Source: Psilocybe cubensis (taxonomy: Eukaryota). From it: a DNA stretch of 64,000 nt. Made by a program: the position numbers and the translations under genes. The notes beneath the pieces were generated by a model. That model saw only the letters and a list, made by a program, of their open reading frames with translations. It made no database searches and was not told the origin of the DNA. Location: the NCBI GenBank assembly GCA_017499595.2, contig CM039002.1, positions 3,286,001 through 3,350,000 on the forward strand, written 5' to 3'. Shown in pieces: positions 1 to 51,581 of this stretch (its first letter is position 1; every line of letters starts with the position of its first letter).

Positions 1-586
1 TGCTGGCCTGTCGGCAGATACTGGACCAACAACGCGGTCGTGCAGCGCTACTCATGGGTGGAATAGTAGGACGAATCGCCAAAGAGTATCTGAGCACAGA
101 GTCTGTTCTCCAGGGCCCATCAGTGGAATTGCTGAGAAATGGACGCGGATATGTCGCTAATCCAGAGGCCGAGTTGCTGGCTTACTGCGATGACGGGCTT
201 ACAGAACACGATATTGCGATTATTATCGGGTCGTATTCTCTCATGACGGGTAAGTGTTCACTACATTTAACTGATCGCTCTATTTAATGTCGTTTTTAGA
301 TTTTAAAAATCAGGTCGGAGTCAAGTCTTGGTTTCCTCCCCCGGCGGTATGGAATGAAATCGACAGGAATGGGATAGGATGGCTGGAATGGACTGAACGC
401 AACGAGTACTGGTACCAGACTAGGCTGGAATTAATTCGAAATGGCAAAGCGCAACCTTTAACGCTTCAAGACTGGAAGAGCCTTCTCAAAAATAAGCCAG
501 TCCGTGTTCTAAGGGAATCGGTGCGAGCTCGATCAGCGGCATTTGTCCATGAACATATCCCCGTAACCAGGAATCCTCGTAGATAG
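1..586 (+). CDS. 3' part of a hypothetical transposon-associated protein (2 visible exons, intron 250-299)
   Basis: GTAAGT...TTTAG intron joins ORFs 54..287 and 287..586 in frame. The C-terminus SWFPP..W..WLEWTERNEYWYQTRL..GKAQP..DW resembles proteins seen in agaricomycete transposon clusters. Confidence 0.6.
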
Positions 587-917
587 GTAGCACATTTTTC
601 TTGTTTCTTCATTCACGGATCTACACCACTACTCACAGTCTATTTTTGCCTTCGTACATACTACAAAACAAATTTTATGTATACTATCTATATTTCTTCG
701 TACAAACTATTGGTCAGATATCATGTATACCACGGAAAAAATTGTTTGGACCTGCATCGAAACATGTGTGAATCAATTCTGAGCCCAAAAAACATAAAAA
801 AAACATGAGATTGCTTACAGTAAGCCGGTTAGGCCAATCAAAACTCCGCTAAGTTTTGAACTCCGACACCGCGCCCTATCACGCCTGAGGTTGATGTCTG
901 CACTCTCCTTATTCGCT

Positions 918-1214
918 CTACCCAGGCTCATTGCTCGGGTCAGAACGAATCGGTGGCTCGCTATCCAGGCTCATTGCCGGGATAAGAGCTTCCTATCCAC
1001 TGTCCAGGCTCATTGCTAGGACAAGGATTTTCTACCCCCTATCCAGGCTCATTGCTGGGATAAGGGTGTCGTTCGCCTGCCCAGGCTCATTGCTTGGGCA
1101 AGGATATCCCCCCTATCCAGGCTCATTGCTGGGATAAGGGTATCGTTACTCTGCCCAGGCTCATTGCTTGGGCAAGGATTTTCTACTCCCTATCCAGGCT
1201 CATTGCGTGGATAG
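918..1214 (+). repeat. Array of 8 hairpin-forming units with invariant core CCAGGCTCATTGC (period 36-43 bp)
   Basis: Core starts at 922, 965, 1004, 1043, 1081, 1117, 1155 and 1194. Bases flanking the core differ between units but stay mutually complementary. Confidence 0.9.
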
Positions 1215-1237
1215 TTGTACTTCAGCAGGCCGTAATT

Positions 1238-4200
1238 ATGTCCGACGAAAAAAGACCCTGCTTAGGGTGCCATAAACTCTTCGTACCAGGTCGCTCCTTG
1301 AAGCAGCATACCAACAAATGTAAAAAATATCCTGCTGCAATGAGCAAGGTCCTGAAGGGGTTCCAGGAAAACTTCAGCAGGCAGAATCAGAACAGTAATG
1401 TTGCCAGTGGTTCTTCGCACCAGGCAACCCTTAATAATGAGCCCGGGCCTATGGACGTTGATGTCCATCATGAGTATCTCGATGTGGATATGGTACCACC
1501 TCCAATGCCCCCTGCGCCTCCACCTAAATCACCAACACCACCACCACATCCCCCGACACCACCACCTCCCATTGAACGGCCCAGAGGACTTCCTCCACGC
1601 GTTATTAGATTGCCACAGCGCTTCCAAGACGAGGTCCCACCCGAACCTCCTCTAATTATACCACCAGTCGTGGAGGAGGAACCACCTCAGCCTCAGGAAC
1701 CTCCATCTGTGGAGAGTCTGTATCGAACACCAATGAATGGCTATGGGATATTTCGAGAGTATACCTATGGTCCCCCTTCTATTACTCCTGACGAACATTT
1801 CACACTGTCATCAGTGTCCGATTCTCCAAATATTGCCAAAGACCCAGCCGACTCTTTGAGAAAGGCGTCAGAGGGAACACCAATGGCCCTACCTTCGGAT
1901 TGGTCCTTGGATTCTGAGCCAAAAGACGACAAGAGCTTGCTATTCAAAAATCGTTCTACTCAACTTATCATGTCTTGGTTTTACAACGGCCACGGTACTA
2001 AATCCTACGCTGATACCGACAAATTGATTCACCAAGTCGTACTGGACCCGGATTTTGACCCCAAGGACTTTGATTCCTCCTTTTCTACTGCTCGAGAGGC
2101 AGCGCGTCTGGACGAAATCTCCACCCAAAAAAATTCTACAGATCCTACTTTGTCAGAAGTGTGTCGACCGGAAGCTGGGTGGATCAAGGGCAGCTTTTCA
2201 ATACCAGTGCCATGCGACGGTTTCATATTCGATTCGGAAGAGGAGGCTCCTCAATTTGTTGTTGAAAACGTCATGTATCGAAAACCTCTAGAAGTTATCA
2301 AACAGGCCTTTGCAGAATGCACCTCTGAGACGTATACGACCATACCGTACAGAGAATTTTGGCGTCCCTCACCCGACGAACCACCCGAACGCTTATTCTC
2401 AGAGTCCTACGTGGCGGACATTTTCAATGAAGAGTATGAAAAGATCAAGTCAGAGCCACGCACAGGTCCCCACAGACACCTGGAGCCCTTTGTCGTTGGT
2501 ATCGGGATTTTTTCAGATTCTACCCACCTGACCAGTTTTGGCGATGCTTCTATATGGCCGATCCTTATGTATATCCTCAACCAGTCAAAATACACCAGAG
2601 GGAAACCTAAAGAATTCGCTGCGCACCATATTGCGTATATCCCTAAAGTAAGTTTGTATTGACTGGCATGTACTATTCATATTAACGTTTGGGTCATAGC
2701 TCACAGACACTTTTCAAGATTGGCATCAGCGACAGTTTGGCAAAGCTGCGACATCTGAAATGCTCACCCATATGAGACGCGAGGTCAATACAGGCGTCTG
2801 GGGGCTATTACTTGATGAGGATGTCAAACGAGCGTATGCTGAAGGAGAGGCCGTAGAACTGGCCGACAGAGTATGTCGAGCTATGTATCTCCGTTTTATT
2901 TTTAGTTCAAATGACTACCCCGAAAAGTAAGTCAACATTTACTCGTTATTTCGTTTGATAACTAATGTACAAGCAGAATGCTGCAGTCCTGCTGCAAGTG
3001 TCGCGGCACTTGCTTGTGTCCACGTTGTTTAATTCAAACTATGAATGTCCCAAAGGTTGGATCAAAGATGGATATGCGAAACCGGCTCAAGCTAGCTCGC
3101 GTTGACAGCGAAACTCGTCAATTTGACATCGAAACTGCCCGTAAAGCATTGTTCTTGGGGAAAAAGGTTAACAGCAAGGCGGTTAATGGCTTGCTGCAAC
3201 AGACCTCTGCTTTTCCAACTCGGGTATATTTTTATTTCCTCATATCTACGTATTTTGTCTAAGAATATTACATAGAACGCTTTTTCCAAGGCTTTATTTG
3301 AATATGGCTTCAACTTTTATCGGATGTTTACTGTCGACTTCATGAACGAAGTGGAACTGGGTGTCTGGAAGGCCCTATTTAGTCACCTACTCCGGATTCT
3401 TTATACCTCTAGCAACCAGAACGCCATTGCAACTCTGAACGAAAGGTATTGTCGTGATATCTCGATTCTTACTCAAACTAACTATAGATTTAGATACCGC
3501 CAAGTCTCCCCTTTCGGCCTCACAACTATCCGACGTTTTGCTAGGAATGCTTCAGATATGAAGAAACTGGCAGCACGGGATTTTGAAGATCTCCTTCAGG
3601 TAGGCCTCAATTGCGTGTGATGTTTGATTTTAATTATTAATGATTCCATAATAGTGCTCTATACCAGTCTTTGAGGGCTTGTTGCCAGAACCTGCACACA
3701 ATAAAATTATTCAAAACCTCTTGTTTGAAATGGCGACATGGCACGCCCTAGCCAAGCTTCGACTTCACACCGATACCACTCTGGACGAGTTGGGGAATTC
3801 GTGTACTCGGTTATGTGATCTCCTTCGTCAGTTCCAAAAGGAGGTTTGTAGTCAGTACGCCACTCGCGAGCTTCCATCAGAAACAGCCGCGAGAGGAAGA
3901 AGACAGGCAGCCAAGGCCAAAAAGGCAGCGAGTGCGGGTCTGCCAGTACCTCCGACTCAACCCAATGAACCCAAGACCCGCACGTTCAATATGCAAACGT
4001 ACAAATTGCATTCCCTTCCCGATTACGTCGATTCCATTCGCCAATTTGGCACCACTGACGGCACGAGCACTCAAATGGGCGAAAGCGAGCACAAGAGAGC
4101 GAAACTCTTCTACAAACGGGTCAAGAAAGGTGATCATATTCGAGGTATCGCCAAACACATCTACCGAGAACGTGTGGTACACCGCACTAACCGTGTCGAG

Positions 4201-5415
4201 ATACGCAAGCTGCTGCGTGAGGACAGGGAGTTACTGGAGCCCACTCCTCCTGATTTACATTATCACATCTCATCAGACGTGCGTCGAAAGTTAGATATAC
4301 TACCCTGGATGTCACAAAACCAAAACGATCCGGCGACAAGGGTAAGCCGGATTTTTCGCTTGTTTTTATATACTCAATGTCGTATTTAGGACTTTATGCT
4401 TCGTCTCAAAACTCACCTTTATGCCCGCTTATCAGGGGTAAACGAATTCAGTGATAGCATTGGTACCCATGAGCAACTCCAAATCACAATACTCGGTGAC
4501 CGAATTTACGAACATCAGGTTCTACGCATCAACTATACTTCATATGATATGCGTCGAATACAAGATACCTTGAAGCCAAACTCTTCCCGATGTGACATCA
4601 TGGTACTCGCTAGCAACAAAGGTGCAGATCAGCAGGTTCATCCTTATTGGTATGCCCGTATCATTGGAATCTACCACGCCAATGTGGTAATATCTACCCC
4701 TGATGATTACTACCGTGCCTCCAAGCACAAAGTGGATTTTCTTCATGTCCGATGGCTGGGTGTTTGTGAAGATTGCCATTACGGTTGGAAATATAGAAGG
4801 CTTCCACAGTTGGCGTTTGGTGATATCAATGACTCTGCGTCGTTTGGTTTTGTGGACCCATCCCTCGTACTTCGTGCAACCCATTTGATCCCTCGCTTCA
4901 TTCTTGGAAAAATACCGACTCTCGGCCCATCTGTAGCTTATAGAAGCAAAGAAAATAATGAAGGGGAAGAATGGGAGAGAAATTATGTCAATTTGTGAGT
5001 ACATTTAGTCACTTCTTACCTTTTACTAATTTTTTACAGTTTTGTGGATCGCGACATGGTCATGCTGTACAGAGGGGGTGGAGTTGGCCACGCTAGCACG
5101 CGAGCCGCTACCGATTCTCTTAGGCAAGACCAACGTGCAGACGACATTGCCTCTCGCAAAAAACGCCGCGAGGCACATGAAGCTCCCGATCCTGATCTGG
5201 AACCAGATGGGGCCTCAGACCAGGAGCAAGACGCTCAGGACCAGGCTGAAGTGGCACCTGAAAACAGCGCCGATTCTGATGACAATGAAGACGACAGCGA
5301 CCAGCATACCGATTCTGAAGAGGAGGAGGAGGAGGAGGAGGAGGAGGAGGAGGAGGAAAGCGACGAGGATGAGGACCGGGGTGACCTCGATGAACTCGGG
5401 TTCGCTGAATACTAA
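1238..5415 (+). CDS. Plavaka-type (CMC-related) DDE transposase, multi-exon
   Basis: N-terminal C2HC finger (CLGC..H...C) and Pro-rich linker. Motifs IFSDSTHLTSFGDASIWP, SSNDYPEK, CLCPRC, EVELGVWK, YKLHSLPDY, STQMGESEH, YWYARIIGIYH, FGFVDP..VLRATHLIP, then an acidic tail. Introns e.g. 2648-2699 and 2927-2976 restore the frame. Confidence 0.88.
5318..5357 (+). repeat. (GAG)n microsatellite encoding the poly-Glu tail of the transposase
   Basis: Direct reading of the sequence. Confidence 0.9.
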
Positions 5416-5635
5416 CTGTAGCTTTATGTGAGTCTGTCGTTGATTCTCTTGTACCTCTACTAACACCTTTTTAGATGTATCCTTGTCTTGGCGAGTAATA
5501 CACAATACTTTTCTTGATTTTCGCGTGATTCGGTAAGGAAATGTATTGATATTTAACTGAAATTTTATTGTAACATCCCTATACATCGCTGTACGCCCTT
5601 TGGGCTCTACTCTCTCATTGTGCAACTACGTATGT

Positions 5636-5748
5636 GTGCCTTACCCCCCTCACATCAACCCTCATACACCACCTTAGCTGCAGCCCGACACGTGCCTTAC
5701 CCCCCTCACATCAACCCTCATACACCACCTTAGCTGCAGCCCGACACG
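5636..5748. repeat. 56-bp tandem duplication (2 copies)
   Basis: GTGCCTTACCCCCCTCACATCAACCCTCATACACCACCTTAGCTGCAGCCCGACAC at 5636 and 5692. Confidence 0.9.
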
Positions 5749-5835
5749 ATACCGCCCTTATATTTCAGCGATAAGGACAGCACCGAGCATCGCCCCCAAC
5801 CCAGTTCCGCAGCCTATTTCGACCTGGACGTGCCT

Positions 5836-6290
5836 GGCGCGCGCCACGCGTGTGCTGCGTATGCGTGCGCCACGCTTTTGAGGCGTATGCGTGCGCCACG
5901 CGTGTGCTGCGTATGCGCGCGCCACGCGTTTGATGCGCGCCACGCGTTTGATGCGTATGCGCGCGCCGCGCGTTTGATGCGCGCGCCACGCGTTTGATGC
6001 GCGCGCCACGTGTTTGATGCGCGCGCCACGTGTTTGATGCGCGCACCACGCGTTTGATGCGCGCGCCACGCGTGTGATGCGTATTGCGCGCGCCACGCGT
6101 GTGATGCGTATTGCGCGCGCCACGCGTGTGATGCGTATGCGCGCGCCACGCGTGTGATGCGTATGCGCGCGCCATGCGTGTGTTGCGTATGCGCGCGCCA
6201 CGCGTGTGTTGCGTATGCGCGCGCCACGCGTGTGTTGCGTATGCGCGCGCCACGCGTGTGTTGCGTATGCGCGCGCCACGCGTGTGTGTG
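5836..6290. repeat. CpG-rich, largely alternating purine-pyrimidine minisatellite (18-25 bp units built on GCGCGCCACGCGT)
   Basis: About 20 variants of GCGCGCGCCACGCGTGTGTTGCGTAT / GCGCGCGCCACGCGTTTGAT. Confidence 0.92.
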
Positions 6291-6426
6291 TTCGTCCAGA
6301 TACAAAGAGGCGTCGATACGGGGAGGGAGGGGTATACATGGATGTGTTTTGAAAAATAAAACTTGATTTCATTGTACACGCGTCACGGTAAACTCAGAGT
6401 GCCTGTCGAACGGGCCCTTTATTCCA

Positions 6427-6937
6427 TCATCTCAACGTCCTGATCATCCCCCTCCCCATCGCGCATCTCAACGTCGCTGTCTTCGACGGTCCCCGAGTCC
6501 TCGATACGATTTTCGACTGCGACAACCTGTTCCTCCCGCTCTCGAATTTCGCCGTGGGTCGAAACGACGGGTTCGGTGTCGACTCGCCCGGTCGCGGGCT
6601 CTTCTACGCTGACAACGATCTCGACCTTGTTGTCGGTATCGACGTTGACGCCGATTTTTGCGTGCCCGTTGCGGCCATCGACGGCGACGTTGAGCCTGAG
6701 GCCGTCGCGATCGATCGCGAGGCCGAATTGTACTCCTTGGGGTGCAAAAAAAAATTAACAGTGAGTACTTACTTTGAATATTGAAGACTCACCTTGCTCA
6801 TCCATTTGTCGTCTTCCGTTAACTCTTGTTATGCCGTTAGAAAGCTGTGGTGACTTGCTGGCGCGCTGTGGCGGGTTTGGTGGTGGTGGTGGTGGTGGTG
6901 GTGGTGGTGGTAGTTGAAAAGAAGCACGCGCCGCCAT
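6427..6937 (-). CDS. Small hypothetical protein (~150 aa, poly-Pro N-terminus, 2 exons)
   Basis: MAARASFQLPPPP...MDEQG, then a GTGAGT...CCAAG intron (~6793-6738), then VQFGLAIDRDGLRLNVAVDG...MIRTLR*. The (GGT)n run on + encodes the poly-Pro. Confidence 0.5.
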
Positions 6938-7972
6938 CGTTGATGACTGCGGCGCGCTTTTCCACGCCCGTTTTGGTCATCGTCGTCGACGATGAGCTCG
7001 ATATCGACGAATTTTGAACGGATTAATGTAGTTATTACATGTATACGTAGAGAAATATAACGCTTACCGTGATTGGAACTTCGTTTGAGCGATCGTATGT
7101 TATATTTAACACACGCGCCGGGCCAAGACATACGGCCCCTATGTCGCCCGGTTATGTAATGTCCGGTCAACCGGACTTGTCGTAAACATACGAAAATTCT
7201 TACTTGATTTTGCAGGGTAAAACAAATAATTGTTTGGATATTGTAAAGCTAATAAAAATATTACTTAACATTGTAAACCGGGCCCCGAAATTTGGGTGCA
7301 TTTGTAAGACAAAAAATTTATTGTATTGGTTTACATTGCTTTGTAATCTACTGTCTGTTTAGTTGATGTAAACAATAGTGCTTTACCTTCAAGCTCTGCT
7401 CTGTGTGCAAGCATGTTTCGCACTAGCAAGTACAGTCATCAGAGCGGTGGAAATGAAAGTGGAAAGAAAGGGACTGGGGGCCGTGTCGTGAATATGTCTC
7501 AAGTTATTATACAGAAAACTGAGGTTCAATCTCCAATTTAATTTGTACATGGACTGGCGTGGTTTTGCGGAAATTGACTCGACTTGACGTCATGTAATAA
7601 TGCTACGGTCAGCAAAATTTCTCCTTGCAAAATCATTTTGTGTGAATTGCAATCCCTGTAATCGTTTGGATGGATGTAAATTTGAATTCAAGGTTTTGTG
7701 CTTTGTTTCTATTGTTGTTCAATGTTTTTTGTAATGTTTTATGGCAAATAAATGATTAAAAATTGACTTTAAGCATACGAAATCATTTTTAATAAATTTC
7801 GAGGTTCACAAATGTTTGTAGAGTCTCAAAATGCCCTCCAAATGTTTGCGGCGCCTCCAAATTTTGTTCAAATGTTTCGTGGGAAATTATCGTGTCACAT
7901 GAAACATTGACCTACCGTAAAAGGCATCAAAGGCATTTGGGGGTCTGGTCACTTTTGCCGATGTCCACCTTG

Positions 7973-9931
7973 GGCAATTGCTAGAAGCTCTTGAAGTCGT
8001 TATACGGTCTCAAACAAGCAAGCCTCATTTGGTATCAACTCCTTTGCAAAACCCTTGAAGCCCTTGGTTTCCTTCGCTCAGAACAAGATCACGCTGTCTT
8101 CTTCTTCAATCGCATCTGGAACGGAAAGTGAGTTCACTGCCTTCTCGCAATGCACGTCGATGATGGTCTGGGTGCCTCCAACTGCGGCGAATTCCTCAGT
8201 CATCTCAAGATCGAGATAGGGAAAGCTTTTGGCATCAAGGACCTCGGCCCTGTCAGATGTTTTCTCGGTGTCTACTTTGAACACAATCGCGCTACATGCG
8301 AATTGTGGTTGCACCAAGAATCTTTCATAGAATCCCTCCTTACTGAATTCGATCTTACCAACTGTAATCCCGTGAAAACTCCACTCGATCGAGATAATCC
8401 TTTAGGTTCTGGGGACGAATCGTCAACACTAGACAACATTCCCGACCTCAAACGAACATACCAACACCTCATCGGCTCCCTACTGTTTCTTCAGATGAAC
8501 ACCCGACCCGATATTGCGTATGCTGTACAACTCCTATCCCAACACTGCTCCAATCCTTCATCTCATCACTTTAATGCTGCAAAACGCGTCCTACGCTACC
8601 TGAAAGGGACAAAATCCTTTCGACTCCATTACGATGGAAAGAATTGCAACATCCCTTTAACGGGCCTCTCTGATGCTGACTGGGCAGGTGAGAAACACGA
8701 CCGTGCTTCAATCTCCGGGTTCGTGTGGTCGATGGCAGGTGGCCCCATCTCCTGGTCCTCCAAGAAACAAACTTGCATCGCCTTGTCCTCCACCGAAGCC
8801 GAATATGTTGCGCTCACTCGCTCCGTACAAGAGCAAGGGGGTGCCGGGGTTCAAAAAAAAAACACGACCTCATATTTTTTATTTCGAGGTAATTTGGGCA
8901 ACCTACCTACCTCGTGACCATTACATAACGATCAAAATCGCCTAAAATGGGAATTGCCAAGGGCCAAGACATTGAAAAGTTGGGGTTCTGGGGTTACAGA
9001 GGGAGGCAGCTGGCTCGGAACATTGTCGGTTGTTGTAGTCTCGCAAAGTGGAGTGTATTTGGGTAGGATTACTGGAAGAGTTGTTGTAGTAGGTACACGG
9101 ACTAATGCTAGTCCTCGTTTCATAAAAAAACCTTTGAGTGACAAGTCCTTCAACTTGGGCTTTGTGGATAGCTTTGCTGCTGCGGCTTTACATTTGGCTG
9201 TTCCTCGATGGCGTAGATTTAGGTTCTTTGACCCTCCGGGACCACACTTAATAGCCTTTTGGCAGTCAGGGCAGATTGCGTACCCATCCGCCAGATTGAG
9301 CAGTCGTCCAGACGGTAAATCAATGATCTTAGTAAATCAATGATCTCAGTCAAAATCAGGTCAAATATCTGTGTTGCTTGAAGCCCGGCCACCTATCATG
9401 AAGATTTTAACCTGAATTTCAACGAGATTGGTATTGTGTTTGTTTAAAAAACATAATTTGTCTATGAAATACAGTCCAAAATGCTCTAAACTTGATCACA
9501 GACAACTTTGGACCGTGAAATTCCTCAGAAATTAGACAAAAAAAATATGGTACAATTTTTTTTTTTTCGGGGCTGATCGGCCAACCTACCTACCTAGGTG
9601 GTGTCCAAATTTTGAACACCGGCACCCCCTTGTACAAGAGGGCATCTGGCTTCAACAAGCCTTTAAACAAATATTCATTCCATGTCCTTCACCACTCGTC
9701 CTCTCAACCGACAACAACAGTGCAAAATCACTCGCCGAAAATGACTCCAATCACGGAAAAGCCAAACACATTGACATCCGTTATCATTTCATTCGCTCCC
9801 ACGTAGAATCAAACTCTTTTTCCATTTTACATATTCCTGGTATTCTTAACACCGCTGATATTTTCACCAAGCCCCTTGCCCAAGTTGTCTTTCAAGGACA
9901 CGTCGAACGACTCGGGCTCGCAGCTCGCTGA
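7973..9931 (+). pseudogene. pol: Copia pol fragment, disrupted
   Basis: In-frame stops TAG 7982 and TGA 8129, and interruption by a TIR element. Confidence 0.88.
8834..9632. mobile_element. Non-autonomous TIR DNA transposon (799 bp, 8-bp TSD; hAT-like)
   Basis: TIR CAAGGGGGTGCCGG(G/T)GTTCAAAA at both ends. TSD TACAAGAG at 8826-8833 and 9633-9640. Internal minus-strand remnant with a CPDC..C..H..C zinc-finger-like motif. Confidence 0.93.
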
Positions 9932-33073: not shown

Positions 33074-36000
33074 TCAAAATTCGACGTCCAATACATTTCC
33101 GCTGTCGTGAGTATTCTCTTCAACGTTGGCGAGGTCATCGTCAACCATGGATGTAACAGGAACCGACGCTAGGGTCCGTGGGAAATAAGGAATCAGCCTG
33201 AACGCTGCAAAGCGCAAGCGGGATATGGCTCCATCTAGCTCGCTGAGAATATATGAGCCTCCTTGTGTTCGTTTCACTACCAGCATTGGTCCGACATATC
33301 GAGGTTTTGTCTTGTTTTGTAGGCCCTTGTCGAAACGTGAATTTCTGATAAGCACTAGACTTCCTGGTTTAAGGTCAAAATCGGTCCTGTTTTCCATGTG
33401 TTTCTTCTCTAGCTGTTGCACTGCTGCCCAACGCGACTTGAATACCTGTTCCTTGACACGTTGTAAGTCTGCTGGCCGCTTTTGAAGCATTCTAGCTCGA
33501 TGTGCGATAAGGTCTGTTGTCGATACCAAGGACTCCAAAGGCGGTGCTAAATAGGTTGCTTCAGCGAGATCAAAAGGGAATAAAGGCTCGACGCCGTGTG
33601 CGAGGTAGTAGGGTGAATAACCCGTCGACTTTTGTATGGTAACTCTCTCCGCCCAGAACACCGAACTCACCACATCCAGCCACCTTGACTCGTCCCCACC
33701 GCAGGCTTTTATTATTGCTTCTCGTACATCATAATGCCTACGTTCAACCGGGCCTTGTGCACGAGAGTTATAAGGAGATATTCGGATGTGGTGAATATGA
33801 TATCGTTCTGCAAGATGTTTGGCAGCAAGCAGGTACTGGGGGGCATTGTCTGTCACAATCACTTCTATTGCACCCCACCGTGTCAGGATCTGAAGCAGGA
33901 AAGCGGCTATTTCCGTATAGTCGTCGGTTCGAGTGGCCACCCATTCGGGGTATGATATTAACGAGCAACGGGCGTGTATTATGTAGCGGAATCCGCGCAC
34001 TTTTGGCATGAGCATAGTGTCAACATAAACCTTTCTGAAAAGCCCTGCCGGCATTGGCACTGTCGCTGGTATCGAAACTTTCATGGTATTTCGGGTCTGG
34101 CATTCATGACACGTCTTTATGAACCATTTGACGTCCAATTCCAGATCTGGCCACCAGAATCGTTCGAGAAGTCGCATCCGCACTGTATAGATCCCTTTAT
34201 GACCTAAATCATCGTGTGCTTGTTTGAGAAGTTTGTAGCGTAGCTCGGGCGAAATGACAAGTTTGTGTCTGCCATGCCTGTCCTTCCTCCACAGCTGCTT
34301 GTCCAAGATGAAGTAGTTTGATACCAGACGAAGAAATTTGGTATATTCTGCATCAGACATGTTGTCTGGTCGCTTGGGTGCTTCTAGAAACATACGAATG
34401 GCTTCGAGGTCCCGATCGCGCGCTTCGCTTTTGCTGTTACGAGGAATAGCCACATTGACATGTATTGCTGCTACAAGAGCAGATGCATCCACTCGCAATG
34501 CTTTGTTGTTACTGGTGACTTGAGCCGCACGCACAGCCTGGTGGTTCAAGCACTCTATTGCAAAGGAATATGCATTATCTATCCAGTCGTCATGATCTTC
34601 TGCTTCGTCTGGATCGTTGTCTGCTTTGGGTCGCCTCGATAGTCCGTCCGCAGACGCATGGTCTTTGGCAGGGACGTGCCGAAGTTTGAAGTCAAATAGG
34701 AGGATACCCGCGATCCACCGGTTTATGGTTGCGCTCGGTTGGATATCTGGATTGTTGATCATACCTTTTATGTATTTTGCATCGACCTCCACCACTAAGT
34801 TGTGCACGCCGACTATGAACACCCGGTACGCTTTGAGTGCCCGGAAGAGGCCATAGAGCTCAATTTTTGCTTGTGAATATCGCTGCTCGCGTTCGTTCCA
34901 TGTTATGGAGCCAAATCTGCACAGGTATCTTCTCCCATCGTCACCCAGCTGTGATAGAATAAATCCTACCGCGATGCACGACGAGTCTACTGCGAGTATA
35001 ACCTCATTTCCAGATGTGTAGTCGATTGCCCTGATAGCCGGACACGTTCTGGCCAGTATCTTCATCTTCTCCAGTGATGCAAACTGAGTCTCCCCAAACT
35101 CGAAGTCCATGTCCTTTCGGGTGAGCTGTACAAGCGGTTTGGCATGAATAGCAAAATCCTTGATGAACATTCGTATGGTCCCTAGTGTACCCAGGAAGCC
35201 ACGGACGTCCGTAAGGTTTCGTGGAATTGGCCAATCTGTTATTTTCTGAACCCGTGATTCGTCTGGCACGCGACCATTATACGTGCACTTATGTCCAACA
35301 ACAATGGCGCTTTCGACACACAGGAATGACTTCGCCGCTGAGAACGTACCCCCTGCGTGTTTGATTCGTTGGATCACCCGATTTACATTCTGGAGATGCT
35401 CCCATACAAAGCGCCTAATCCCTGGGTTTTCTCTGATCGTTTCAAAGGATCCCTCTTCCAGTTCATATCGCGTTGCCGGCCCTTTCACTGGAATATCGTC
35501 CACAAAGGGCATTGTTATATGGGGAATCTCATCTTGTAGTAGAAATGTTGTGTCGCCGTGTTGGATTTGCATCGAGTTCGTGTACCCCATTGGAATAGAT
35601 GTCAATCGGAAGGTGCCTAAAGGCGTCTGGAATGTTGTCAAATCGCGTGATTCGACTGCCAGAGACCGTTGATCGAACCCTACAAACAGATCAAACACTG
35701 CATAGCAGCCTCGTCCGCCAAAGGCTTCAGCATACTGTTCTACCATGGGCGGAAGTGCGCTATCCTTAATTGAGACCGCATTTAATGGTTGTAAGTCGTG
35801 CACAATTCGTAGAGATTTCCCATCTTTCTTGAGTACACAAAACCAACGCGACCGGTACGATGAATTTGACGGTTCATATATCCCCGACGATATTTTGTTT
35901 TTGATGACCTCTACCACTTGATGGAAGATTCCTGGAGGAATGGGGATGTTACGCAGAACCCATGGGACATGTTCAATGGTGGGTATCACCACTGGGTCGA

Positions 36001-36440
36001 AATACTCGTCACTAAACTTTCCTTTCTCGGATTCATCCCATGCGAACGCGGTTTCGTGTAACAGTATTATGTGGTGCACCAATTTCTCTTCCTCTGGCCA
36101 GAGGAATCCGTCTGGGTTAACTTTCATGGCTTCTTTTCTTTGTAGTGTGTATCGTTGTCCTGGTGTAAATTCGGGCGGTCTGGTCGGAAGAGCAGGCAGA
36201 TCTGCAAGCGGGTCTGACGGAATGCGTCGTACGATGCGAAACTTTTCGGGTAGCGTTGTTGCGACGGGTTTAATTCGATTGGCGACTTTTTTATATGCGA
36301 GCGATGCGTTTTGATTTCGGTTATCAGACGTGTAATAGCGAGAAAAGGAATTGGATTGAGAAATAGAAACATTTGACGTATTTATGATGTGAAGACTCTG
36401 GTCTCCTCGATTTATATTCGATTCATCGACCCCTAAAAAT
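33074..36440 (-). CDS. pol: Gypsy pol (RT, RNase H, integrase), probably reached by -1 frameshift
   Basis: LRIVHDLQPLN, FDLFVGFDQ, PMGYTNS, PFVDDIP; LAVDSS, ELYGL; HHCC finger (AHDDLGH...CHEC); integrase core DTML/TDNA/VERRH. The frame is open upstream of Met 36127 to the slippery site. Confidence 0.93.
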
Positions 36441-38499
36441 CCACACTGACTGTGGCGGCTGTTGTGCTGCTTCGGTCCCGTTTGCGAGTTGGAACTGTTA
36501 TTTCCGCTCCAGAGTTAGGATCAATCATAGTTACTTCAGATGACCCATCCTCAAAGTGCCTAGTGACCAGACGCGTGAGGCACATGAAAGGCAGTCCTAC
36601 CAAGAGTTCATATGGTGCGTCTTGAACCACTTGCACCTGCACATAGAAGTCATATCCTCCAATGGATATCTTCAGGTTTTGTATGAGTCCGAGTGTCTTG
36701 TCCTTGCTTGCATTGGCTGACTCCATAACCATCACATGGTCGGACCTGATTGGAACTGCCAGCTTCTCCCAGATGTCCTTCCTGATTCCAACAATTTGGG
36801 ACCCTTCATCCATGATCCCTTCGACCTTCATGTCCCCAATGGTAAAGTCTAGACATCTCAACTCTTGTACATGGTCTGCCACTACCATCCCTTCTTTGTT
36901 GGGCAAGAGCGAAGCAAGGTAAGCCGAGTATTCTTCACTCTGAGGCATTCCTACTACCATGCTAGACCCTGTCTGCTCGGTAGGGATGCGTCTGGCCGTA
37001 ATCAGGTCCTTGAACTGTCTCCTAACCTCTGGTGCCACTGCCAGCAGTTCCCTGTTGGACAGTGTCACTGTGGCGTCTAGTGCTGTATCCAGTACTTTCT
37101 TCACGATTTTTACCTCTTCTATGGGTGTAGAGTACCTGAACTGTGTACTGTTGGCCGAGTGCGATGCAGGTATGGTTGGAACGGCCGGTGCGAGTGTCTT
37201 GGTCGGGTCGTGGGAAATCGTATCTGCCGCCTTGGTTTTGCTTCTCGTTGCTGGTCCCCCGGTTCCCTTGGTTCCGAAGTACTTCTTTCTGGTATCGTCA
37301 ATTTTCTTTTGTGTGGATGCCACAAGCGATTCCATGATTTGTAAGTCCTCAATTTCGCGTTCGGTAGGTGGTGCAACCTCGTTGTGCGCAAAGTCCATCG
37401 CGGCGGCGAAAGCCGACGTCGTGGGAATCTCCCATTTGAACTCCGAACCTGCACTCACCATGTTTGATGATACGGTTGGCGAGTTAGCAGATTTGCTTTT
37501 ATGCCAGTTATCAACACGCTCCATGATATTCCTTCCCGGTGCGGTTCGAGGGGTGACACGTGTCCCATCTGGTAACACCAAGAAATTTTCGCTATTGCGC
37601 ACACAGAGCCCCTTTTTGATATATTCCGCCGCTTTGGCACAACTATGTTGATAATGTGATGGATCAGAGCAGAAGGAACAGTCGTTGTTGCGAGGTCTAG
37701 GTGCTCCTTGAGTTTGCAACGTCGGGTACCCTTGATTCTGGGCGTTTTGGTACACGTTTGATGGAGCATGTTGTAAGTTCATCTGTTTTATGAGTTCCAG
37801 TGCCAGGGCACTCATGTTGAAGTTGCTCGTTTGTTGCAGTGCTGGAGCAATACTAGATATATCAAAATGCTCGCGCTTGACTGAGGGAGACGCTTCGAGT
37901 GCTGGCGCCACAATTTCGGTGTCGTCGTGGTTGCAGGATAATATGAATAGTGCTGCCTCGCATATTTGGTTTAGCGTGTAAGGGTCGTCACTGTGATGCT
38001 TCGGGTTTTCAGCCCTTAGCTGGGCTCGGACCTGTACTCTGAAGGCATAGTCTAGACCTCTCATGAACAGGTTACTTATTTCACGATCGTTCAACTTGTT
38101 TTTCGATTTAAGGAACCGTGAAATTTTCGAAAATGCGCGGTAATATGTTCCAAATTGTTCCGAGTTTGTGATTTGTCCGGCAGCTTGTTTTTCAGTGAGC
38201 ATTTCCAGATTTGCAACTGAGTATTTCCTGTCTCCTGTCGATCCGGGATACTGTGCAAGCAGCTCGCGTTTGAAAGCAATCCAGTCATCACCTGACGAGG
38301 TATCTAAACCGCTCCATAGCTCGTGTTCGTCGCTTCCTGGGGCATAACGAATCGTCCAATCGATGGTCTGCTTGGGGGTAAGCTCACAGCTCGTTGCTAG
38401 CTGTTCAATGTCGTCTAGAAACATAGGAAGTGACCCCGCAGTTCCATCGAACTTGGGAGCGGAGCTATGGTTCTTGCTAGGCATGTTTGGTGGCGCCAT
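36433..38499 (-). CDS. gag: Gypsy gag-protease polyprotein (688 aa)
   Basis: APKFDG capsid-like start, CSFCSDPSHYQHSC zinc knuckle, aspartic protease IMDEGSQIV...LLVGLPF. Confidence 0.92.
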   Translation of the reverse strand: MAPPNMPSKNHSSAPKFDGTAGSLPMFLDDIEQLATSCELTPKQTIDWTIRYAPGSDEHELWSGLDTSSGDDWIAFKRELLAQYPGSTGDRKYSVANLEMLTEKQAAGQITNSEQFGTYYRAFSKISRFLKSKNKLNDREISNLFMRGLDYAFRVQVRAQLRAENPKHHSDDPYTLNQICEAALFILSCNHDDTEIVAPALEASPSVKREHFDISSIAPALQQTSNFNMSALALELIKQMNLQHAPSNVYQNAQNQGYPTLQTQGAPRPRNNDCSFCSDPSHYQHSCAKAAEYIKKGLCVRNSENFLVLPDGTRVTPRTAPGRNIMERVDNWHKSKSANSPTVSSNMVSAGSEFKWEIPTTSAFAAAMDFAHNEVAPPTEREIEDLQIMESLVASTQKKIDDTRKKYFGTKGTGGPATRSKTKAADTISHDPTKTLAPAVPTIPASHSANSTQFRYSTPIEEVKIVKKVLDTALDATVTLSNRELLAVAPEVRRQFKDLITARRIPTEQTGSSMVVGMPQSEEYSAYLASLLPNKEGMVVADHVQELRCLDFTIGDMKVEGIMDEGSQIVGIRKDIWEKLAVPIRSDHVMVMESANASKDKTLGLIQNLKISIGGYDFYVQVQVVQDAPYELLVGLPFMCLTRLVTRHFEDGSSEVTMIDPNSGAEITVPTRKRDRSSTTAATVSVDF

Positions 38500-38739
38500 C
38501 TTGGTTGCAATTCCCCAATTTACTGGAACAAATGTGGGTCGGGTCGGGGACGACTGTGCAGAGGCGTTCGATGAATCCGATGACGAATCGGTTTCAGATA
38601 AAGGCTGGCGGTAGTGAAAATAATGGGGAAAATATGTAGGTGTTGGACGCGTTTCCGTGGCGTCTTGGGTGTTCTCGAGTCCCTCCTTGTTTGGGGCACT
38701 CGAGAATCAAGGATAGGGTGGTTTACAACCTTTAGAACC

Positions 38740-41304: not shown

Positions 41305-43597
41305 ATGAGGTTCAACATTCCCCTCATTCGCGTTCGTATAAATACCCGTCCCACCGGTAAGCAAACGTTTGTATATCAGAAACGCGACAGGGCCCAGCTC
41401 TCGCGTTGGTTAGAGGCTTGCCAGGCGAGGGATCACCCCTGGGCCAGGTCTGTCAAACTGCCAGCCAACGCAGGAGCTAGGGCGTGTCGTGATTGCAAGA
41501 ACCCTGCTCACCGTCGGTTTTTGCATGCATAGATGTCGGCCTGCCAATGGGCGCGCTATACGGTACGTCCTTGGAAACTTTTCTATGCATATACCGAGTT
41601 TTAAATCGGAAATCTGTTCAAGCAGACACGATCTGGGAGGGTGTATGCCCAGTGTCAGCCTGAGGTATGGGAGGATCCGTTGGCTTTTGACTTGATCTCT
41701 GCCTGGCGGGCAGCAGATGCAAGGGAGGACACAGACTTGTTAGATCTGGATCAAGGTGAGTCACCATGTTTGCCTACTCGTCATCTGCCCATTCACGTAC
41801 TTGTCAATAGATGTCTTGATTCCATCGACCGACGATACGTCGATGCCATCCGTTCACGACATCTGGACGCCGTCGATCCACGATGCGTCGAAGAATTGGT
41901 CGACGGACGATACCTGGATGCAGTTTACGAACAATACGTCGACGCCGACGGCGTTGATCCACGACGTGTCGACCCCGTCAACCCGCGAATCGACGACGTC
42001 GATCCACGACGTGTCGACCCCGTCAACCCGCGAATCGACGACGTCAGCCCACAACGTGTCGACCCCGTCAACCCGCGAGTCAATGCTGTCAGTCCATAAT
42101 GCGTCAACCCCGTCAACCCACGAATCGACGACGTCAGCCCACAACGCGTCGACGCCGTCAACCCGCGAATCGACGACGTCAGCCCACAACGCGTCGACCC
42201 CGTCAACCCGCGAGTCGATGCTGTCAGCCCACGATGCGTCGACACCATCGGTTGACAATATGTCGACACCGCCGATTGTACCTTCGCAATCGTCGACCAA
42301 GCTTTCGCTTTTGTTACCTCAGCGAGACCCATCCGTGCAAACCGCCAGCCTGAAAAGGCCATACGATGGGCTTTCCAACAGTCATCGCAGCCGCAAGTAT
42401 CAGCGGACGTTACAATACAATAAGCACGGACACGCACCAAAACCCAGTCTTTTAAGCATGCTTCCCAGCTGCCAGCCAGAGGCTCTCAACGTCAAGCTTG
42501 ACGCTTTGCCTGCCACGCAAGGCGCCTATGGTGCTAAACCAACAAAACCCCACAAAAGTCACCTATATAGCTTGGATGCCATCAAGGCCCTTGGGTTCCG
42601 CATTATACCTTGGGATGGATGGTGAGTTACAACTGTTCTGATCTGTTCAGTTTGATGGAGTTAAAGCTAATGCACTATAGCACCCCCGTCCCGTTTGTTT
42701 CTGAAGACGGACGTATTTTTATGGTTCTGGCAGGCCGTCCTAAGGACCCTGCATACGAACGTGCCACGGAGGAAGCATTCGATCTACTGAGGGAGGCCGG
42801 ACACACCACAGCGTTTACACACGAAGACTATTCAGAAAATCGTGGTCATTATCCCGCACTCAACATCGGCGTTACACACAGTGTAGGGACACACTCTCCA
42901 CTCAACCGCGTCCAGCGCCATCCCAAAATCACTGCCAAGCTCTTGCAGTCGGAAAGCATTCAACGAATGGCCAGTTTTGCCAGCAGTAAGTGACTCCTAT
43001 GCCTGTTTTGTGAACCTGTTTTTAAACACATCCACAGGTGCATTTGCTACATGGAGCCCTAAAGTGTACAACCACTATAAGTTGTACATGGATAAGATAT
43101 TCGCCAATGACTCCACGCTAGTCCGACTGTTTCGCCGCAGCATATTTCCGGCGGCCACCTTCAACCTAGGGTCTGTGGTTTGCACCATCCCGCATTTTGA
43201 TATCAAAAACTGTCCATATGGCTGGTGCGCCATCCAGTCTTTAGGGAAATTCAATGCCAAAAAGGGTGGTCACTTTGTGGTGTGGGGCCTGAAAGTGGCC
43301 ATTGAGTTCCCTGCAGGATCTACCATCCTTATGCCGTCCGCCGTCCTAGAACATTCAAACACCAGCATTGAACACGGAGAGGAGCGTGCTTCCTTTACTC
43401 AGTATGCTTCAGGTGGCCTGTTTAGATGGGTTGATTATGGCTACCGCACCAAGAAGGAGTTAAAACGTACAAACCCCAAGCTTTATCAAGAGCAAATGGA
43501 GCTTAGGCCAACACGATGGAAGAGGGGGTTGGGCATGTTGTGCACCTTACAAGATCTTATTTCAAAAGCTGCGTTTGAGGTCTCTGGACAAGTTTGA
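41305..43597 (+). CDS. TET/JBP-family dioxygenase with Ser/Thr-rich repeat N-terminus (5' exon structure uncertain)
   Basis: LGFRIIPWDG|CTPVPFVSEDGRIFMVLAGRP..RGHYPALNIGV; TIPHFDIKNCPYGWCAIQSLGKFN..GGHFVVWGLK.AIEFPAGSTILMPSAVLEHSN..ERASFTQYASGGLFRWVDYG (HxD...H...R intact). Confidence 0.88.
41956..42245 (+). repeat. 45-bp CpG-rich coding minisatellite (~6 units) in the TET/JBP gene
   Basis: GTCGACCCCGTCAACCCGCGAATCGACGACGTCAGCCCACAACGC variants encoding STPSTRESTTSAHNA. Confidence 0.9.
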
Positions 43598-48378: not shown

Positions 48379-51300
48379 GTGCGGTCAAGTCTACCCCCAT
48401 CAAGTATTAGCCGTGCCTCGCTTGCAACTCCAAGTAGCAACATTACAGGATCACCTGAAACCAAAAAGCAAAAGCGACGTAGAAAGGGACACAAGAAACG
48501 CGCAGCTGCTTTAAGATCTAGAGAAGTAACAAAGCAGTGGAAAGATATAGTGAGCAAATCTAAACATTTGGACGGTATTCTGTCTGCCCTAGAAAATGCC
48601 AACTTGCGTGTATGGGATTTCATGGAATATGTGTTTAATCCTATACACAAAAAAGGTGTTATCCAATATCGACACTTCTTTTCCAAGCCTGAAAATCCCA
48701 TCATGCTTCTTGACTGGTGGCTATCACCCGATAACCAGTCTAAAATTGCCAAAAAGAAGATTGACGAATGGATTACAACCTATTGTGCCCGGAAAATAGC
48801 TCGAGAAGCCTTGGTCATTACTCGATCAAGAATTCTGTTGACGATGAACAAAACCATTGACCCCAATCTCGCAAATCAATTTAGCTATAACCAACTCTAC
48901 AATGTTTTTTGCACAGAACTTGCTCCAGTTGCCATGCAAATGTTGGAAGCATTTTTAACATCCCATCGTGCCAACACCCATACTATTGCAAGAAAAGAGC
49001 GCACCAAAAAGGCAACCAATACTCTTTATGCTAGTGCAAATTACTAATCCTTCTCTAACTAGATCATTACATCTATGGCGCTTACTTGTCTAGGGGAGTA
49101 TAGTCACTCCAACAATCTTCCAAAATGGATGCTGGGGCTATATCTGTATTCTTCTGGGGCTCAAAGGCAATGTATCAGTGTACTCTCATCACTAGGACTA
49201 TCGGAAAGTTACACAAATCTGACGACAAAAAATCTGGTCCGAATGAGAAAGCCCAAATTATCATTACAGACTGATAGCAATCCGTTTCTGGACCCTGACA
49301 CATCCAACAAGGTTGTAGTTGTCAAAAAGCGAACTGGAACTCTTTATCAGCTTTCTGAAAGCGCACGCTTATTGGCTCGTAAAATTGCTGCAACTGGTCT
49401 ATTTTCCACCAACTATGATAATGTGAATATGCGAATGCATAATACGGAACAAATAATTGGTCGACACGGTAAGTAAATGTATTTCCAGACATCTTTTGGG
49501 CGCTTAATCCACACACGTAGATTCACAAGAAAATGGAACATGTGCCACGTTAATACCACTCTTTGATGCCAAGATAGAAGATCTTAATCTTCAGAAGTTC
49601 CAGTTATCATTTTTGGAAGCACCAATCCTTCAGATTCAAGAAATTCTACTCAACAGTGACGAGCAAAAATCCTTAAAAGCTAATCTGGTTCATACCATCT
49701 TGCGTATTATCATTAATCATGGTAGTCCGGGATTTCAACGGTTTACAAAAGAGCTAGCAAAATCTCAACCGCAGACACCTGACATTATTCCACTGCATAA
49801 AACCAATCTTCATCCTCTTCCTACATGGCCCATTGATGAATCAACCATCACCGGAAATGCAGATGTTGTCACAGCCATTATGCAAGAGCTAGATTTAGTT
49901 GACAGCCAGGGAAAACCCAAAAATCCTGATGCTTCAAATCAGGTTCGCTTTTTAGGCGGTGACCAGCTATCTCTTGCACGCCTCCGAGCATTAGAATACA
50001 TCTGCGCTGGTCAAGAAAGTGGCTTGGAGGGCTATTTCTAGGGCGTTTGGATACCAGGTCTCTTTCACGCGAAAATTGCAGACTCACACGGCATGCTATT
50101 AAACCACTTTGGATGCCCGGATACTGGAGCACAAAATCCTGGCTCCTTATGGTTTCACAACACTCGCCTTGATAGGCTTCCTATAACCCTAACAAGCTTG
50201 CCAACCTTTCGAACATGCCGTGACTTAGTGTTTGTATCACTTTACTCTCGCGTGCTGCATTGCTTACTTCTAGTCTCAAATTATTCGTCACTAGACAAGT
50301 ATTGTGCCAATGTCACAACTTGGCAAGCTTTTTATCATCACGCTGAAATGATACTCGAGAAGTACGCCAACTCTCTAATAGTTGAAGAATTACGCGATCA
50401 GCGAAATGAAGAGATGGATATGTCGGACGAGGAAAACAAAAAACCTACCCAAGGTGATATGGTGTTTGAAAACGCATCACTGTTTCTACGTGATGCCTTG
50501 ATTACTCGTGAGTTTAATGACGTAATTAAATCTGGAGACTCGGGAAGAATTATCTTGGTTCTAAAAACCTGGGCACTTAGTTTCCGAGGAAGCGGCAGAA
50601 CAAAATATGCACATGAAATGCTTTACCTTATTCATAATCTAACTCACGTTTGGCCAAAAGCAATTCGGTACGTGAGCTTTTAGTGTGGTACAAATACTAT
50701 ATTCATTAAGAGTGTTTGTCAGTGATATTGTATTGAAGAATTGGGTACTCAATCCTTTGGGAGAGCCTAATCAATTTGTCGAGATGGATCTCGTTCAAGA
50801 ACACCTCAATTTTCGGATAAAGGTAAGCTCTTGTTCTCACAAAAAGAAACAGGCGACTCACTTCATATTCTAGGTTCTTTATAAAGCCAAGGGATCAAAT
50901 GCTTCATGGGAATGGCTTGAAATTATATCATCATGCGTTGTTGCACTATCCGACCTACAGAAGATGTTAAACGACACACTCGGATCAGACCAAGGTACCA
51001 AACATGCACCGCCCGACCTAACCAACGACATTCACAGTTTAATGGAAAGTCTTTCTGACCACAAGGTGTACACTATCAAAAAAGGAAGATCACTCAACGA
51101 CAATGAGATGGTAAAGGATGTCATTTCAGTGGGATTGCAAAATCTTACTACAGGCAGCAAGAACCCCCTTTCCGACTACAACAACTCCTTTAAAAAGCTT
51201 CAAAAACAACGAAAAATGAACCCAGTCTCTGCAGATGAAACAGACAATGAAAGGGACATACCTGCACATCCCACCTCCATCAAAAGTGAACCTCTGGATA

Positions 51301-51581
51301 TCCAGATTGTCCCAAATGCAGTCTCTACATCCTCTGTATATTCAAATCATGCTTCAGCTTCAGACAGTATGGGCGAGTCTAGCATGCAGGGTTTTGGAGA
51401 TGATATGGAAGTAGAAGAGTCAGCTGAGGAGGCGGACAACAGTGAAGAAGTGGAAGAAACCTTACCTTGTGCCACAGAAAGGGATGTGGACCTTGACATG
51501 GATCTTGAGGAAATAGAGGAGGAGTACAATGTTATTGAGGATTCAGAGGATTCAGAATTGGAGGGGGAAGGGGACAGGTAG
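48379..51581 (+). pseudogene. DUF6589-domain protein (possibly an Academ-like DDE transposase) with a premature stop
   Basis: YDNVN, NGTCAT, IDESTITGN, GGDQLSLARLR, PGLFHAK, IKSGDSGR, FRGSGRTKYAHEML, MDLVQEHLN. In-frame TAG at 50039-50041. Start uncertain. Confidence 0.75.

Follow-up and report, generated by a model that had tools for sequence, protein, structure and literature searches.

An array of eight palindromic repeats upstream of a Plavaka transposase gene in Psilocybe cubensis as a candidate cluster of regulatory DNA motifs

Introduction

What might eight short, imperfectly palindromic repeats do directly ahead of the start codon of a transposase gene, and would they be read as DNA or as RNA? 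The question is raised by a tandem array at positions 918..1214 (+ strand) of a 64,000-nt stretch of Psilocybe cubensis DNA (assembly GCA_017499595.2, contig CM039002.1, positions 3,286,001 to 3,350,000; hereafter the window), adjoining the start of a gene for a Plavaka transposase. Plavaka elements are abundant in mushroom-forming fungi, and the locus, with an array of clean and testable anatomy, offers a concrete handle on their regulation. An earlier inspection of the letters of this DNA (the sequence-only reading) had described the units as covarying hairpins and had proposed selection on structure rather than on sequence. Here, we find that the strongest and clearest signal of the array is a constraint on sequence. 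The array most likely controls the transposase gene and, by analogy with known systems, we tentatively read it as a family-specific cluster of protein-binding DNA motifs that would regulate transposase transcription (probability roughly 0.4).

An invariant core repeated eight times ahead of the transposase gene

Each unit of the array carries the 13-mer CCAGGCTCATTGC, of which the window holds exactly eight exact copies, all on the + strand, starting at 922, 965, 1004, 1043, 1081, 1117, 1155 and 1194, the last copy ending at 1206; the eight units with an invariant centre described earlier are thereby borne out. The stem-loops built around the cores occupy 919-941, 962-984, 1001-1023 and 1040-1062 (units 1-4, + strand) and 1078-1100, 1114-1136, 1152-1174 and 1190-1214 (units 5-8, + strand), with unit spacings of 43, 39, 39, 38, 36, 38 and 39 nt. 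None of 100 dinucleotide shuffles of the window reached nine or more core matches at up to two mismatches (shuffle mean 1.42). The sole further match of that grade in the window lies on the - strand at 1337-1349, and a covariance model built from the eight units and run on the window recovered those eight and nothing else. Tandem Repeats Finder (TRF) detected a 39-bp period (6.5 copies) and a 74-bp one (3.3 copies, 85% matches). Unit 4 is identical to unit 6 and unit 5 to unit 7, which together with the 74-bp period indicates that the array grew partly by duplication of a two-unit block.

The core stands out from its surroundings by its conservation, all 13 of its columns being invariant as compared to 4 of the 20 columns outside it (Fisher p = 4e-6). 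It is constrained asymmetrically, with a fixed left inner arm and loop, and with right-arm partners of the core A and G that read TC, CG, TA, TG, TT, TG, TT and GT in units 1-8, transversions included. Furthermore, the three CpA sites within the core are intact in all eight units, and CpA-context sites in the arms have changed in five of the eight; the interpretation of these arm changes in terms of CpA context is our own. Asymmetric invariance of this kind is what the sequence-specific recognition of a single 13-nt word inside a palindrome leaves behind, and it is this constraint on the core, not selection on structure as first proposed, that dominates the array.

The array ends 23 nt ahead of the ATG at 1238 (the sequence-only reading had estimated about 25 nt) and sits in a 651-bp spacer between an upstream accessory gene and that ATG. 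The gene starting there (1238..5415, + strand, with introns; stop codon at 5413-5415) encodes a Plavaka transposase, as had been assumed: the Pfam Plavaka domain PF18759 was found with E = 5e-11 on exon 1 and with E = 5.5e-20 on the full-length P. cubensis protein P0001, to which the product is 99% identical. A sister family, represented by P0002, is 87% identical. The public annotation places the start at Met-35. Since the 34 preceding residues carry a conserved N-terminal C2HC-type zinc finger (C-x2-C-x12-H-x3-C, at 1259-1330; conserved in alignment A2, and kept in Agrocybe as well as in a majority consensus built from 25 homologues), the ATG at 1238 is likely the true start. The part of the spacer that precedes the array (587..917, + strand) is AT-rich and, by inspection of the sequence, contains a CCAAT at 834-838 and a last ATG at 894.

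Upstream arrays in related Plavaka loci

Metagenome loci encoding Plavaka relatives were used for comparison (the best 80 of 543, comprising 482,744 nt in total). The nearest relative shared at most 57% amino acid identity in its best segment, and at most 50% was found among the loci with upstream sequence. The covariance model of the eight units had no match in these loci (best E = 0.39). The sequence-only reading had itself named absence from related elements as a result that would refute its proposal, and at the family level the array is indeed absent; the motif is specific to one element family.

Repeats of another kind do stand at the corresponding place. Of the 60 relatives with 400 nt or more of upstream sequence, four have a 10-mer repeated 5-10 times (at most 2 in matched coding controls), in arrays located approximately 200-400 nt 5' of the ATG (L050:1-545, L051:3040-3280, L057:296-420 and L042:2500-2660). 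All four consist of direct repeats in one orientation, are unrelated in sequence to the Psilocybe core and lack a folding excess (z -1.5 to +2.6), and blastn detected no upstream DNA shared among the four loci. The array of L057 directly follows a CATCA, which could be the 5' terminus of that element. As these upstream arrays do not fold, the common feature ahead of the transposase gene in this family appears to be repeated DNA words and not hairpins.

A scan of viral contigs for two cores 20-32 nt apart gave 0 matches, and the two matches to this pattern in prokaryote genomes, both on contigs of bacterial metagenome-assembled genomes, were set aside as coincidental, unrelated tandem repeats. 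These two, L081:3314-3420 and L082:3590-3740, contain the core 13-mer in one case as a 13-bp microsatellite and in the other within a 36-bp coding repeat.

A candidate cluster of regulatory DNA motifs

We favor a cluster of protein-binding DNA motifs because of the asymmetric invariant word, its single orientation, its position upstream of the gene, its family specificity and the non-folding arrays of the relatives. The array consists of densely packed, like-oriented copies of a short motif that lie in non-coding DNA and are built in tandem. According to the mechanism we propose, a unit holding a 13-bp recognition motif would have been amplified by tandem duplication in the non-coding spacer to give the eight copies of like orientation, and the array would act as double-stranded DNA, that is, as a cis-regulatory platform such as a promoter, an upstream activating sequence or an operator. 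We infer that a protein binds there, for which the N-terminal zinc finger of the transposase, the accessory protein and a host factor are candidates, and binding may turn transposase transcription on or off, or shield it from silencing. The palindromic arms would then be a by-product of the origin or the mutation of the unit, or may add a second function at the RNA level.

Three points weigh against this reading. A DNA-site model leaves the complementary changes of the arms unexplained (6 of 720 permutations, see below), so that either coincidence or biased mutation, for example by template switching in quasi-palindromes, has to be invoked for them. The array is so close to the ATG that, if transcription starts upstream of it, the whole array will be part of the leader. 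Finally, one candidate binder, the accessory protein, has neither a Pfam match nor a fold match. The DNA-site and the RNA-leader readings are not mutually exclusive.

Complementary arms and a possible role as RNA

The hairpin shape given by the sequence-only reading was reproduced in every unit, with an outer stem of 5 bp, an invariant A in a 1x1 internal loop, an inner stem of 2-3 bp and a UCAUU loop. The outer flanks, in agreement with those given before, read ACCC/GGGT in unit 1, TATCC/GGATA in units 2, 4, 6 and 8, TGTCC/GGACA in unit 3 and TGCCC/GGGCA in units 5 and 7. The inner stem, earlier given as GGC/GCY, has this form in seven of the eight units (GGC/GCU in six, GGC/GCC in unit 2), unit 8 retaining only GC/GC.

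Whether the flanks change in a compensatory manner was judged from alignment A1, which has 33 columns and seven distinct rows, the covariation thus being one among paralogous units of a single array. The claim holds for two arm positions, which covary without exception: the pairs 7-27 (AU in four rows, GC in three) and 8-26 (UA in four, CG in three) are never unpaired in the seven rows. When the right arms were permuted jointly, all-Watson-Crick pairing was obtained in 48 of 40320 orders with all eight units, and in 6 of 720 with the six units that are left after collapsing duplicates. The claim does not extend to the rest of the stem, as only two of the eight pairs covary, through at most four double changes that are all transitions, and with the poorly paired outer columns counted in, 29 of 500 shuffles attained the covariation score of the whole structure. 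The arms occur as four haplotypes, TGC/GCA, TGT/ACA, TAC/GT and TAT/ATA, which are always complementary. All four can be derived from the GC-rich TGC/GCA via C>T or G>A at mirror-image positions, and such positions have equal sequence context on the two strands. Allowing for heterogeneity of decay from unit to unit, we estimate the chance of the arm concordance seen here at approximately 1/16 to 1/64. Overall, the structural evidence is moderate.

As RNA, the units fold with -9.3 to -17.2 kcal/mol in one of two computations and with -9.3 to -18.5 kcal/mol over both, and per unit at most 2.6% of shuffles fold equally well. Folding of the region 900-1240 gave a z of -6.1 on the + strand (-144.8 kcal/mol) and of -6.7 on the - strand (-143.7 kcal/mol). 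The spacer segment 587-886 has no folding excess (z +1.25). A preference for the + strand had been implied earlier by a G-U pair of the inner stem. This pair (12-22) does favor the + strand in six of the eight units (five of the seven distinct rows), but the C.A mismatch 5-29 of the + strand becomes G.U on the - strand, so that the preference vanishes once the outer stem is included. With fold energies that are nearly equal, the strand cannot be inferred, and strand choice by wobble pairs was rejected as uninformative.

Alternatively, the array may be transcribed from a point upstream of 918 and act as a series of RNA hairpins in the leader of the transposase mRNA, each with a stem of 8-9 bp. 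Translation or the choice of start would then be controlled through these hairpins by a protein, or by their pairing with GCAAUGAGC, a complementary stretch at the second in-frame AUG. The two perfectly covarying pairs over four haplotypes, the stable RNA hairpins and the G.U pair speak for such a model. The 300 nt 5' of the ATG also have a z of about -6; among 17 relatives in which 300 nt ahead of a defined ATG were folded, 15 lack such structure (the other two have z -5.65 and -3.26). The short distance to the ATG would suit a leader, as would the stretch 895-1237, which is free of ATG. From the sequence alone, a possible leader intron can be drawn between a GTAAGC at 820 and a CAG at 1226-1228, the splicing of which would take out the array. 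On the other hand, the - strand folds equally well, two covarying pairs of eight with at most four transition events constitute limited covariation, and an invariant 5' side of the stem with free partners suits a DNA site equally. The arrays of the relatives are non-folding, and a search of positions 500-1500 against Rfam 15 at E up to 10 yielded 0 matches. Moreover, single hairpins of -10 to -18 kcal/mol are reported in work by Kozak not to halt scanning ribosomes by themselves. We regard a leader function of the hairpins as the main rival, somewhat less probable than the DNA-site reading. Upstream structure of a different make was observed in one of the two folding relatives (L018:9820-9890), which has one long inverted repeat, nearly perfect and with a stem of about 20 bp, approximately 100-170 nt 5' of the transposase ATG (z of the upstream 300 nt -5.65 or -4.68, by two computations).

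A more specific form of the leader model starts from the - strand core match mentioned above. When the core is reverse-complemented, it agrees with GCAATGAGCAAGG at 1337..1349 (+ strand) in 11 of 13 positions, nine of them contiguous. This segment spans the second in-frame ATG (codon 35), the start used by the public annotation. In a post hoc test, shuffling the first 300 nt of the coding sequence produced so good a match 9 times in 2000, and shuffling the whole gene did so 78 times in 2000. At the RNA level, GCUCAUUGC from the hairpin apex and GCAAUGAGC are perfectly complementary, and their duplex (-13.4 kcal/mol) covers the codon 35 AUG; a protein begun at that codon would lack the N-terminal zinc finger. 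The eight hairpins could constitute an RNA operator in the leader, its apical GCUCAUUGC being bound by a protein of the element or paired with GCAAUGAGC, and pairing would set the balance between the full-length transposase and a form without the finger. This may be likened to Tnp and Inh of Tn5, an inhibitor-versus-enzyme switch. We regard such an operator as distinctly improbable.

Possible repeat decay without function

A third explanation requires no function, namely that the array is a minisatellite in which a palindrome was amplified by slippage and its arms were kept complementary by template switching or by mirrored C-to-T decay. Template switching can create stems and retain compensatory changes without selection (PMC8794818). 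The element harbors two further tandem arrays 3' of the transposase stop that are both variable in length and unrelated to the 5' array. These are a 56-bp direct repeat in two copies (5636..5748, + strand), the copy number of which varies according to reads that skip 56 bp, and an array of approximately 18.7 copies of a 26-bp unit (5837..6286, + strand), each unit holding CACGCGTG and TGATG, with many read joints inside it that indicate a length differing between copies or strains.

The type of decay also agrees. Reads of one raw DNA run (X15) and three contig runs were mapped to the window, and in X15 there were 378 variant places in positions 1-9000, C>T (100) and G>A (91) together making up 191. 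This excess suggests cytosine deamination or a decay of the repeat family resembling repeat-induced point mutation, and the dominant change among copies is thus the very one by which the four haplotypes can be derived from TGC/GCA. The absence of the motif from the relatives (best 80 of 543) is likewise in line with a functionless repeat.

Nevertheless, a minisatellite cannot account for 13 contiguous invariant columns beside columns that vary freely. Among the best-supported 15 of 24 read joints there is no change of unit number within 918-1214, unlike in the 26-bp array, and the sole indel listed in the array, seen in 31 of 307 reads, removes 1 nt at 1173. Template switching should have repaired the mismatches at columns 22-23, yet these have persisted. 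The element itself is recently active: of 18699 mapped reads, 10777 were at least 99% alike, 5746 were 95-99% and 2176 were 90-95% alike. Raw-read depth was flat at approximately 310-400 from base 1 to 5100 and the same over the accessory and transposase genes, compared to the approximately 35-41x that we expect of single-copy DNA if the genome measures 40-47 Mb; together with the identity classes this indicates about nine to ten copies, some of them recent. Contigs of the runs X10 and X12 span 1038-1613 with 0-2 differences and represent essentially the same element. On balance, we consider it unlikely that the array is merely a decaying repeat.

Less probable explanations

The sequence-only reading had also considered a binding platform of single-stranded DNA. 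Such a platform could consist of hairpins or cruciforms serving the transposition machinery or replication. The palindromic units and their covarying arms would be in line with this idea, but the hairpins are weak when folded with DNA parameters (-3.3 to -8.9 kcal/mol), and three of the seven units folded, unit 6 being left out as identical to unit 4, were within the range of their shuffles. The arms contain mismatches, the loop has 5 nt, and the array is internal and present in one place only. DDE transposases of the CACTA/Transib group are not known to use such sites, and we hold this platform to be very improbable.

Alternatively, the repeats could be subterminal ones of the En/Spm type, acting as cis sites for excision beside a terminal inverted repeat. 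Plavaka transposases are related to those of En/Spm (PMC12730594), CACTA elements have family-specific subterminal repeats (PMC2613891), and the L057 array directly follows a CATCA, all of which would speak for this explanation. The location speaks against it. The 3' terminus of the element was placed at a TGATG of the PlavakaB type (7364..7368, + strand) from a read boundary, the sequence and the published rule, by which PlavakaB elements have termini 5'-CATCA..TGATG-3' and target-site duplications of 2-3 bp (Kojima 2025, PMC12730594). Directly behind 7368 (...TTGATG), 263 reads diverge into differing sequences, with a consensus agreement of just 0.38. No 5' boundary was found among the loose read ends listed, the positions 1-586 being occupied by the 3' end of a gene instead. 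Likewise, no inverted repeat of the 3' end exists in 1-1240, and a search of 1-9000 gave low-complexity pairs only. The element therefore carries two co-oriented genes and is probably a multi-copy PlavakaB, its 5' end lying beyond the window start, past an accessory gene of about 3 kb. Standing between the two genes, several kilobases away from the 5' end, the array is neither subterminal nor at a transposon end. The array is not within a few hundred bp of a terminus, and its motif does not occur at both ends, as it is missing from the 3' part of the element in either orientation; the last 190 bp contain TTGTAA-like words instead. An excision role is accordingly highly implausible. The TTGTAA-like words, of which there are about six, one of them inverted, at 7180-7368 before the TGATG, are unrelated to the core and may be the true subterminal motifs of the element.

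The likeness to the anticodon arm of initiator tRNA-Met, for which the shared pentamer CUCAU is the one argument, deserves virtually no credence, given that ARAGORN found no tRNA in 1-8000, the Rfam search was negative, and the array hairpins, with a 5-nt UCAUU loop closed by C-G and a GGC/GCU stem including a G.U pair, match neither the 7-nt CUCAUAA loop nor the three G-C pairs of the initiator.

The accessory gene and other features of the window

The gene upstream of the array is represented in the window by its 3' end (1..586, + strand; exons 3-249 and ~300-583, stop codon at 584-586), the translation of which is identical to the C-terminus of the proteins P0055 and P0044. These and P0218 are accessory products of approximately 1000 aa, encoded by a gene of about 3 kb that is present in multiple copies (a cluster of 17). 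The accessory gene and a Plavaka gene are neighbours by locus tag at three loci (9312/9313, 9884/9885-6 and 5133/5135), and a single gene model of another P. cubensis family (33% identical) spans an accessory homologue followed by a Plavaka + DUF6830 transposase. A tblastn search of the four array-bearing relative loci revealed no accessory homologue.

At E up to 1e-3, the family of the protein comprises 1281 representatives, and its AlphaFold model is confident, with a pLDDT of 82.6 and a pTM of 0.80. A search of a local Pfam library that lacks PF28437 gave no match; a precomputed label does assign PF28437. Foldseek against the PDB returned nothing at E up to 0.001, an atlas comparison gave scores of at most 0.80, which is chance level, and the VIA wide comparison gave helical bundles only (best Z 4.5) for a model of more than 400 residues, in which single domains were barely tested.

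Between the 26-bp array and the 3' terminus, two open reading frames (ORFs) of 111 and 139 aa without Pfam match are found on the - strand (6422-7248), one with a His run encoded by (GGT)n. Beyond the element, X15 depth is zero at 8101-8700. This stretch, with a fragment of a copia-type reverse transcriptase (RVT_2, ORF 8132-8914), appears to be missing from the X15 strain or too diverged to map. The window is in general rich in transposable elements, with a gypsy-type integrase/RNase H polyprotein, a weak match to Tet_JBP below the Pfam cut-off, a DUF6589 gene and a KDZ transposase with a CxC2 domain, listed in the order of the positions 33077-38706 (-), 42887-43594 (+), 49508-51578 (+) and 57418-59603 (-).

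Comparison with known systems

The account of Plavaka by Kojima 2025 (PMC12730594) is confined to termini, target-site duplications and the transposase, its main text being free of the words 'subterminal', 'tandem repeat' and 'hairpin'. Judged by titles and the beginnings of abstracts, the papers found on transposable elements of P. cubensis do not deal with this element. Transposon-borne tandem motif clusters are known; new here are palindromic units with covarying arms in a fungal two-gene Plavaka element.

In their build, the units resemble repetitive extragenic palindromic sequences and bacterial interspersed mosaic elements (REP/BIME), with imperfect palindromes of about 35 bp, two alternating unit types and arms kept complementary. 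REP/BIME, however, alternate in orientation, are located between the genes of operons and are mobilised by a different class of enzyme. The 5' monomers of mouse LINE-1 share with the Psilocybe array the placing of tandem units directly 5' of the first codon of a transposable-element gene; they are units of about 200 bp, non-palindromic, belong to a retrotransposon and provide an internal promoter and leader. If the array worked as RNA, a counterpart would be the iron-responsive elements (IREs), of which the transferrin-receptor mRNA has five: several hairpins in an untranslated region, with an invariant apex, an unpaired stem base and covarying stems, are recognized by one protein. The array hairpins have no sequence or Rfam similarity to IREs and differ from them in loop and bulge. 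Were the hairpins functional as RNA, the transposase would be one of few eukaryotic DNA transposases under translational control.

For clusters of DNA motifs, En/Spm and its protein TnpA offer a comparison within a related transposase lineage (CMCT clade, PMC12730594). TnpA of Spm requires at least four clustered motifs, and a transposase can itself serve as an activator of transcription (preprint 10.64898/2026.08.24.746577). In En/Spm, at least four short motifs are thus read by proteins of the element for its own transcription (see also PMC2613891), and we propose the Psilocybe array as a counterpart. The subterminal repeats of En/Spm differ in that they are found at two ends, in direct and inverted orientation by the terminal inverted repeats, whereas the Psilocybe array is internal, single and of one orientation.

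A further parallel is VANDAL21, a Mutator-type element of Arabidopsis, the VANC21 protein of which binds a 9-mer that is densely arrayed in one orientation in the non-coding parts of the element, the arrays being formed by tandem repeats (PMC5735166). Like the Psilocybe core, this motif is also found upstream of a gene of the element, the arrays are tandem-built, family-specific and fast-evolving, and a gene for an accessory protein accompanies that of the transposase (PMC5735166). The two differ in superfamily, kingdom and motif, and in the palindromic units with covarying arms of the Psilocybe array. Binding, demethylation and activation of the VANC21 type would be hypothetical for the Psilocybe element, the accessory protein of which resembled nothing known in the searches above, which included no direct comparison with VANC. 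If the accessory protein or the transposase finger does bind the array, the plant paradigm of transposon-encoded self-regulators with tandem-repeat targets would reach the fungi.

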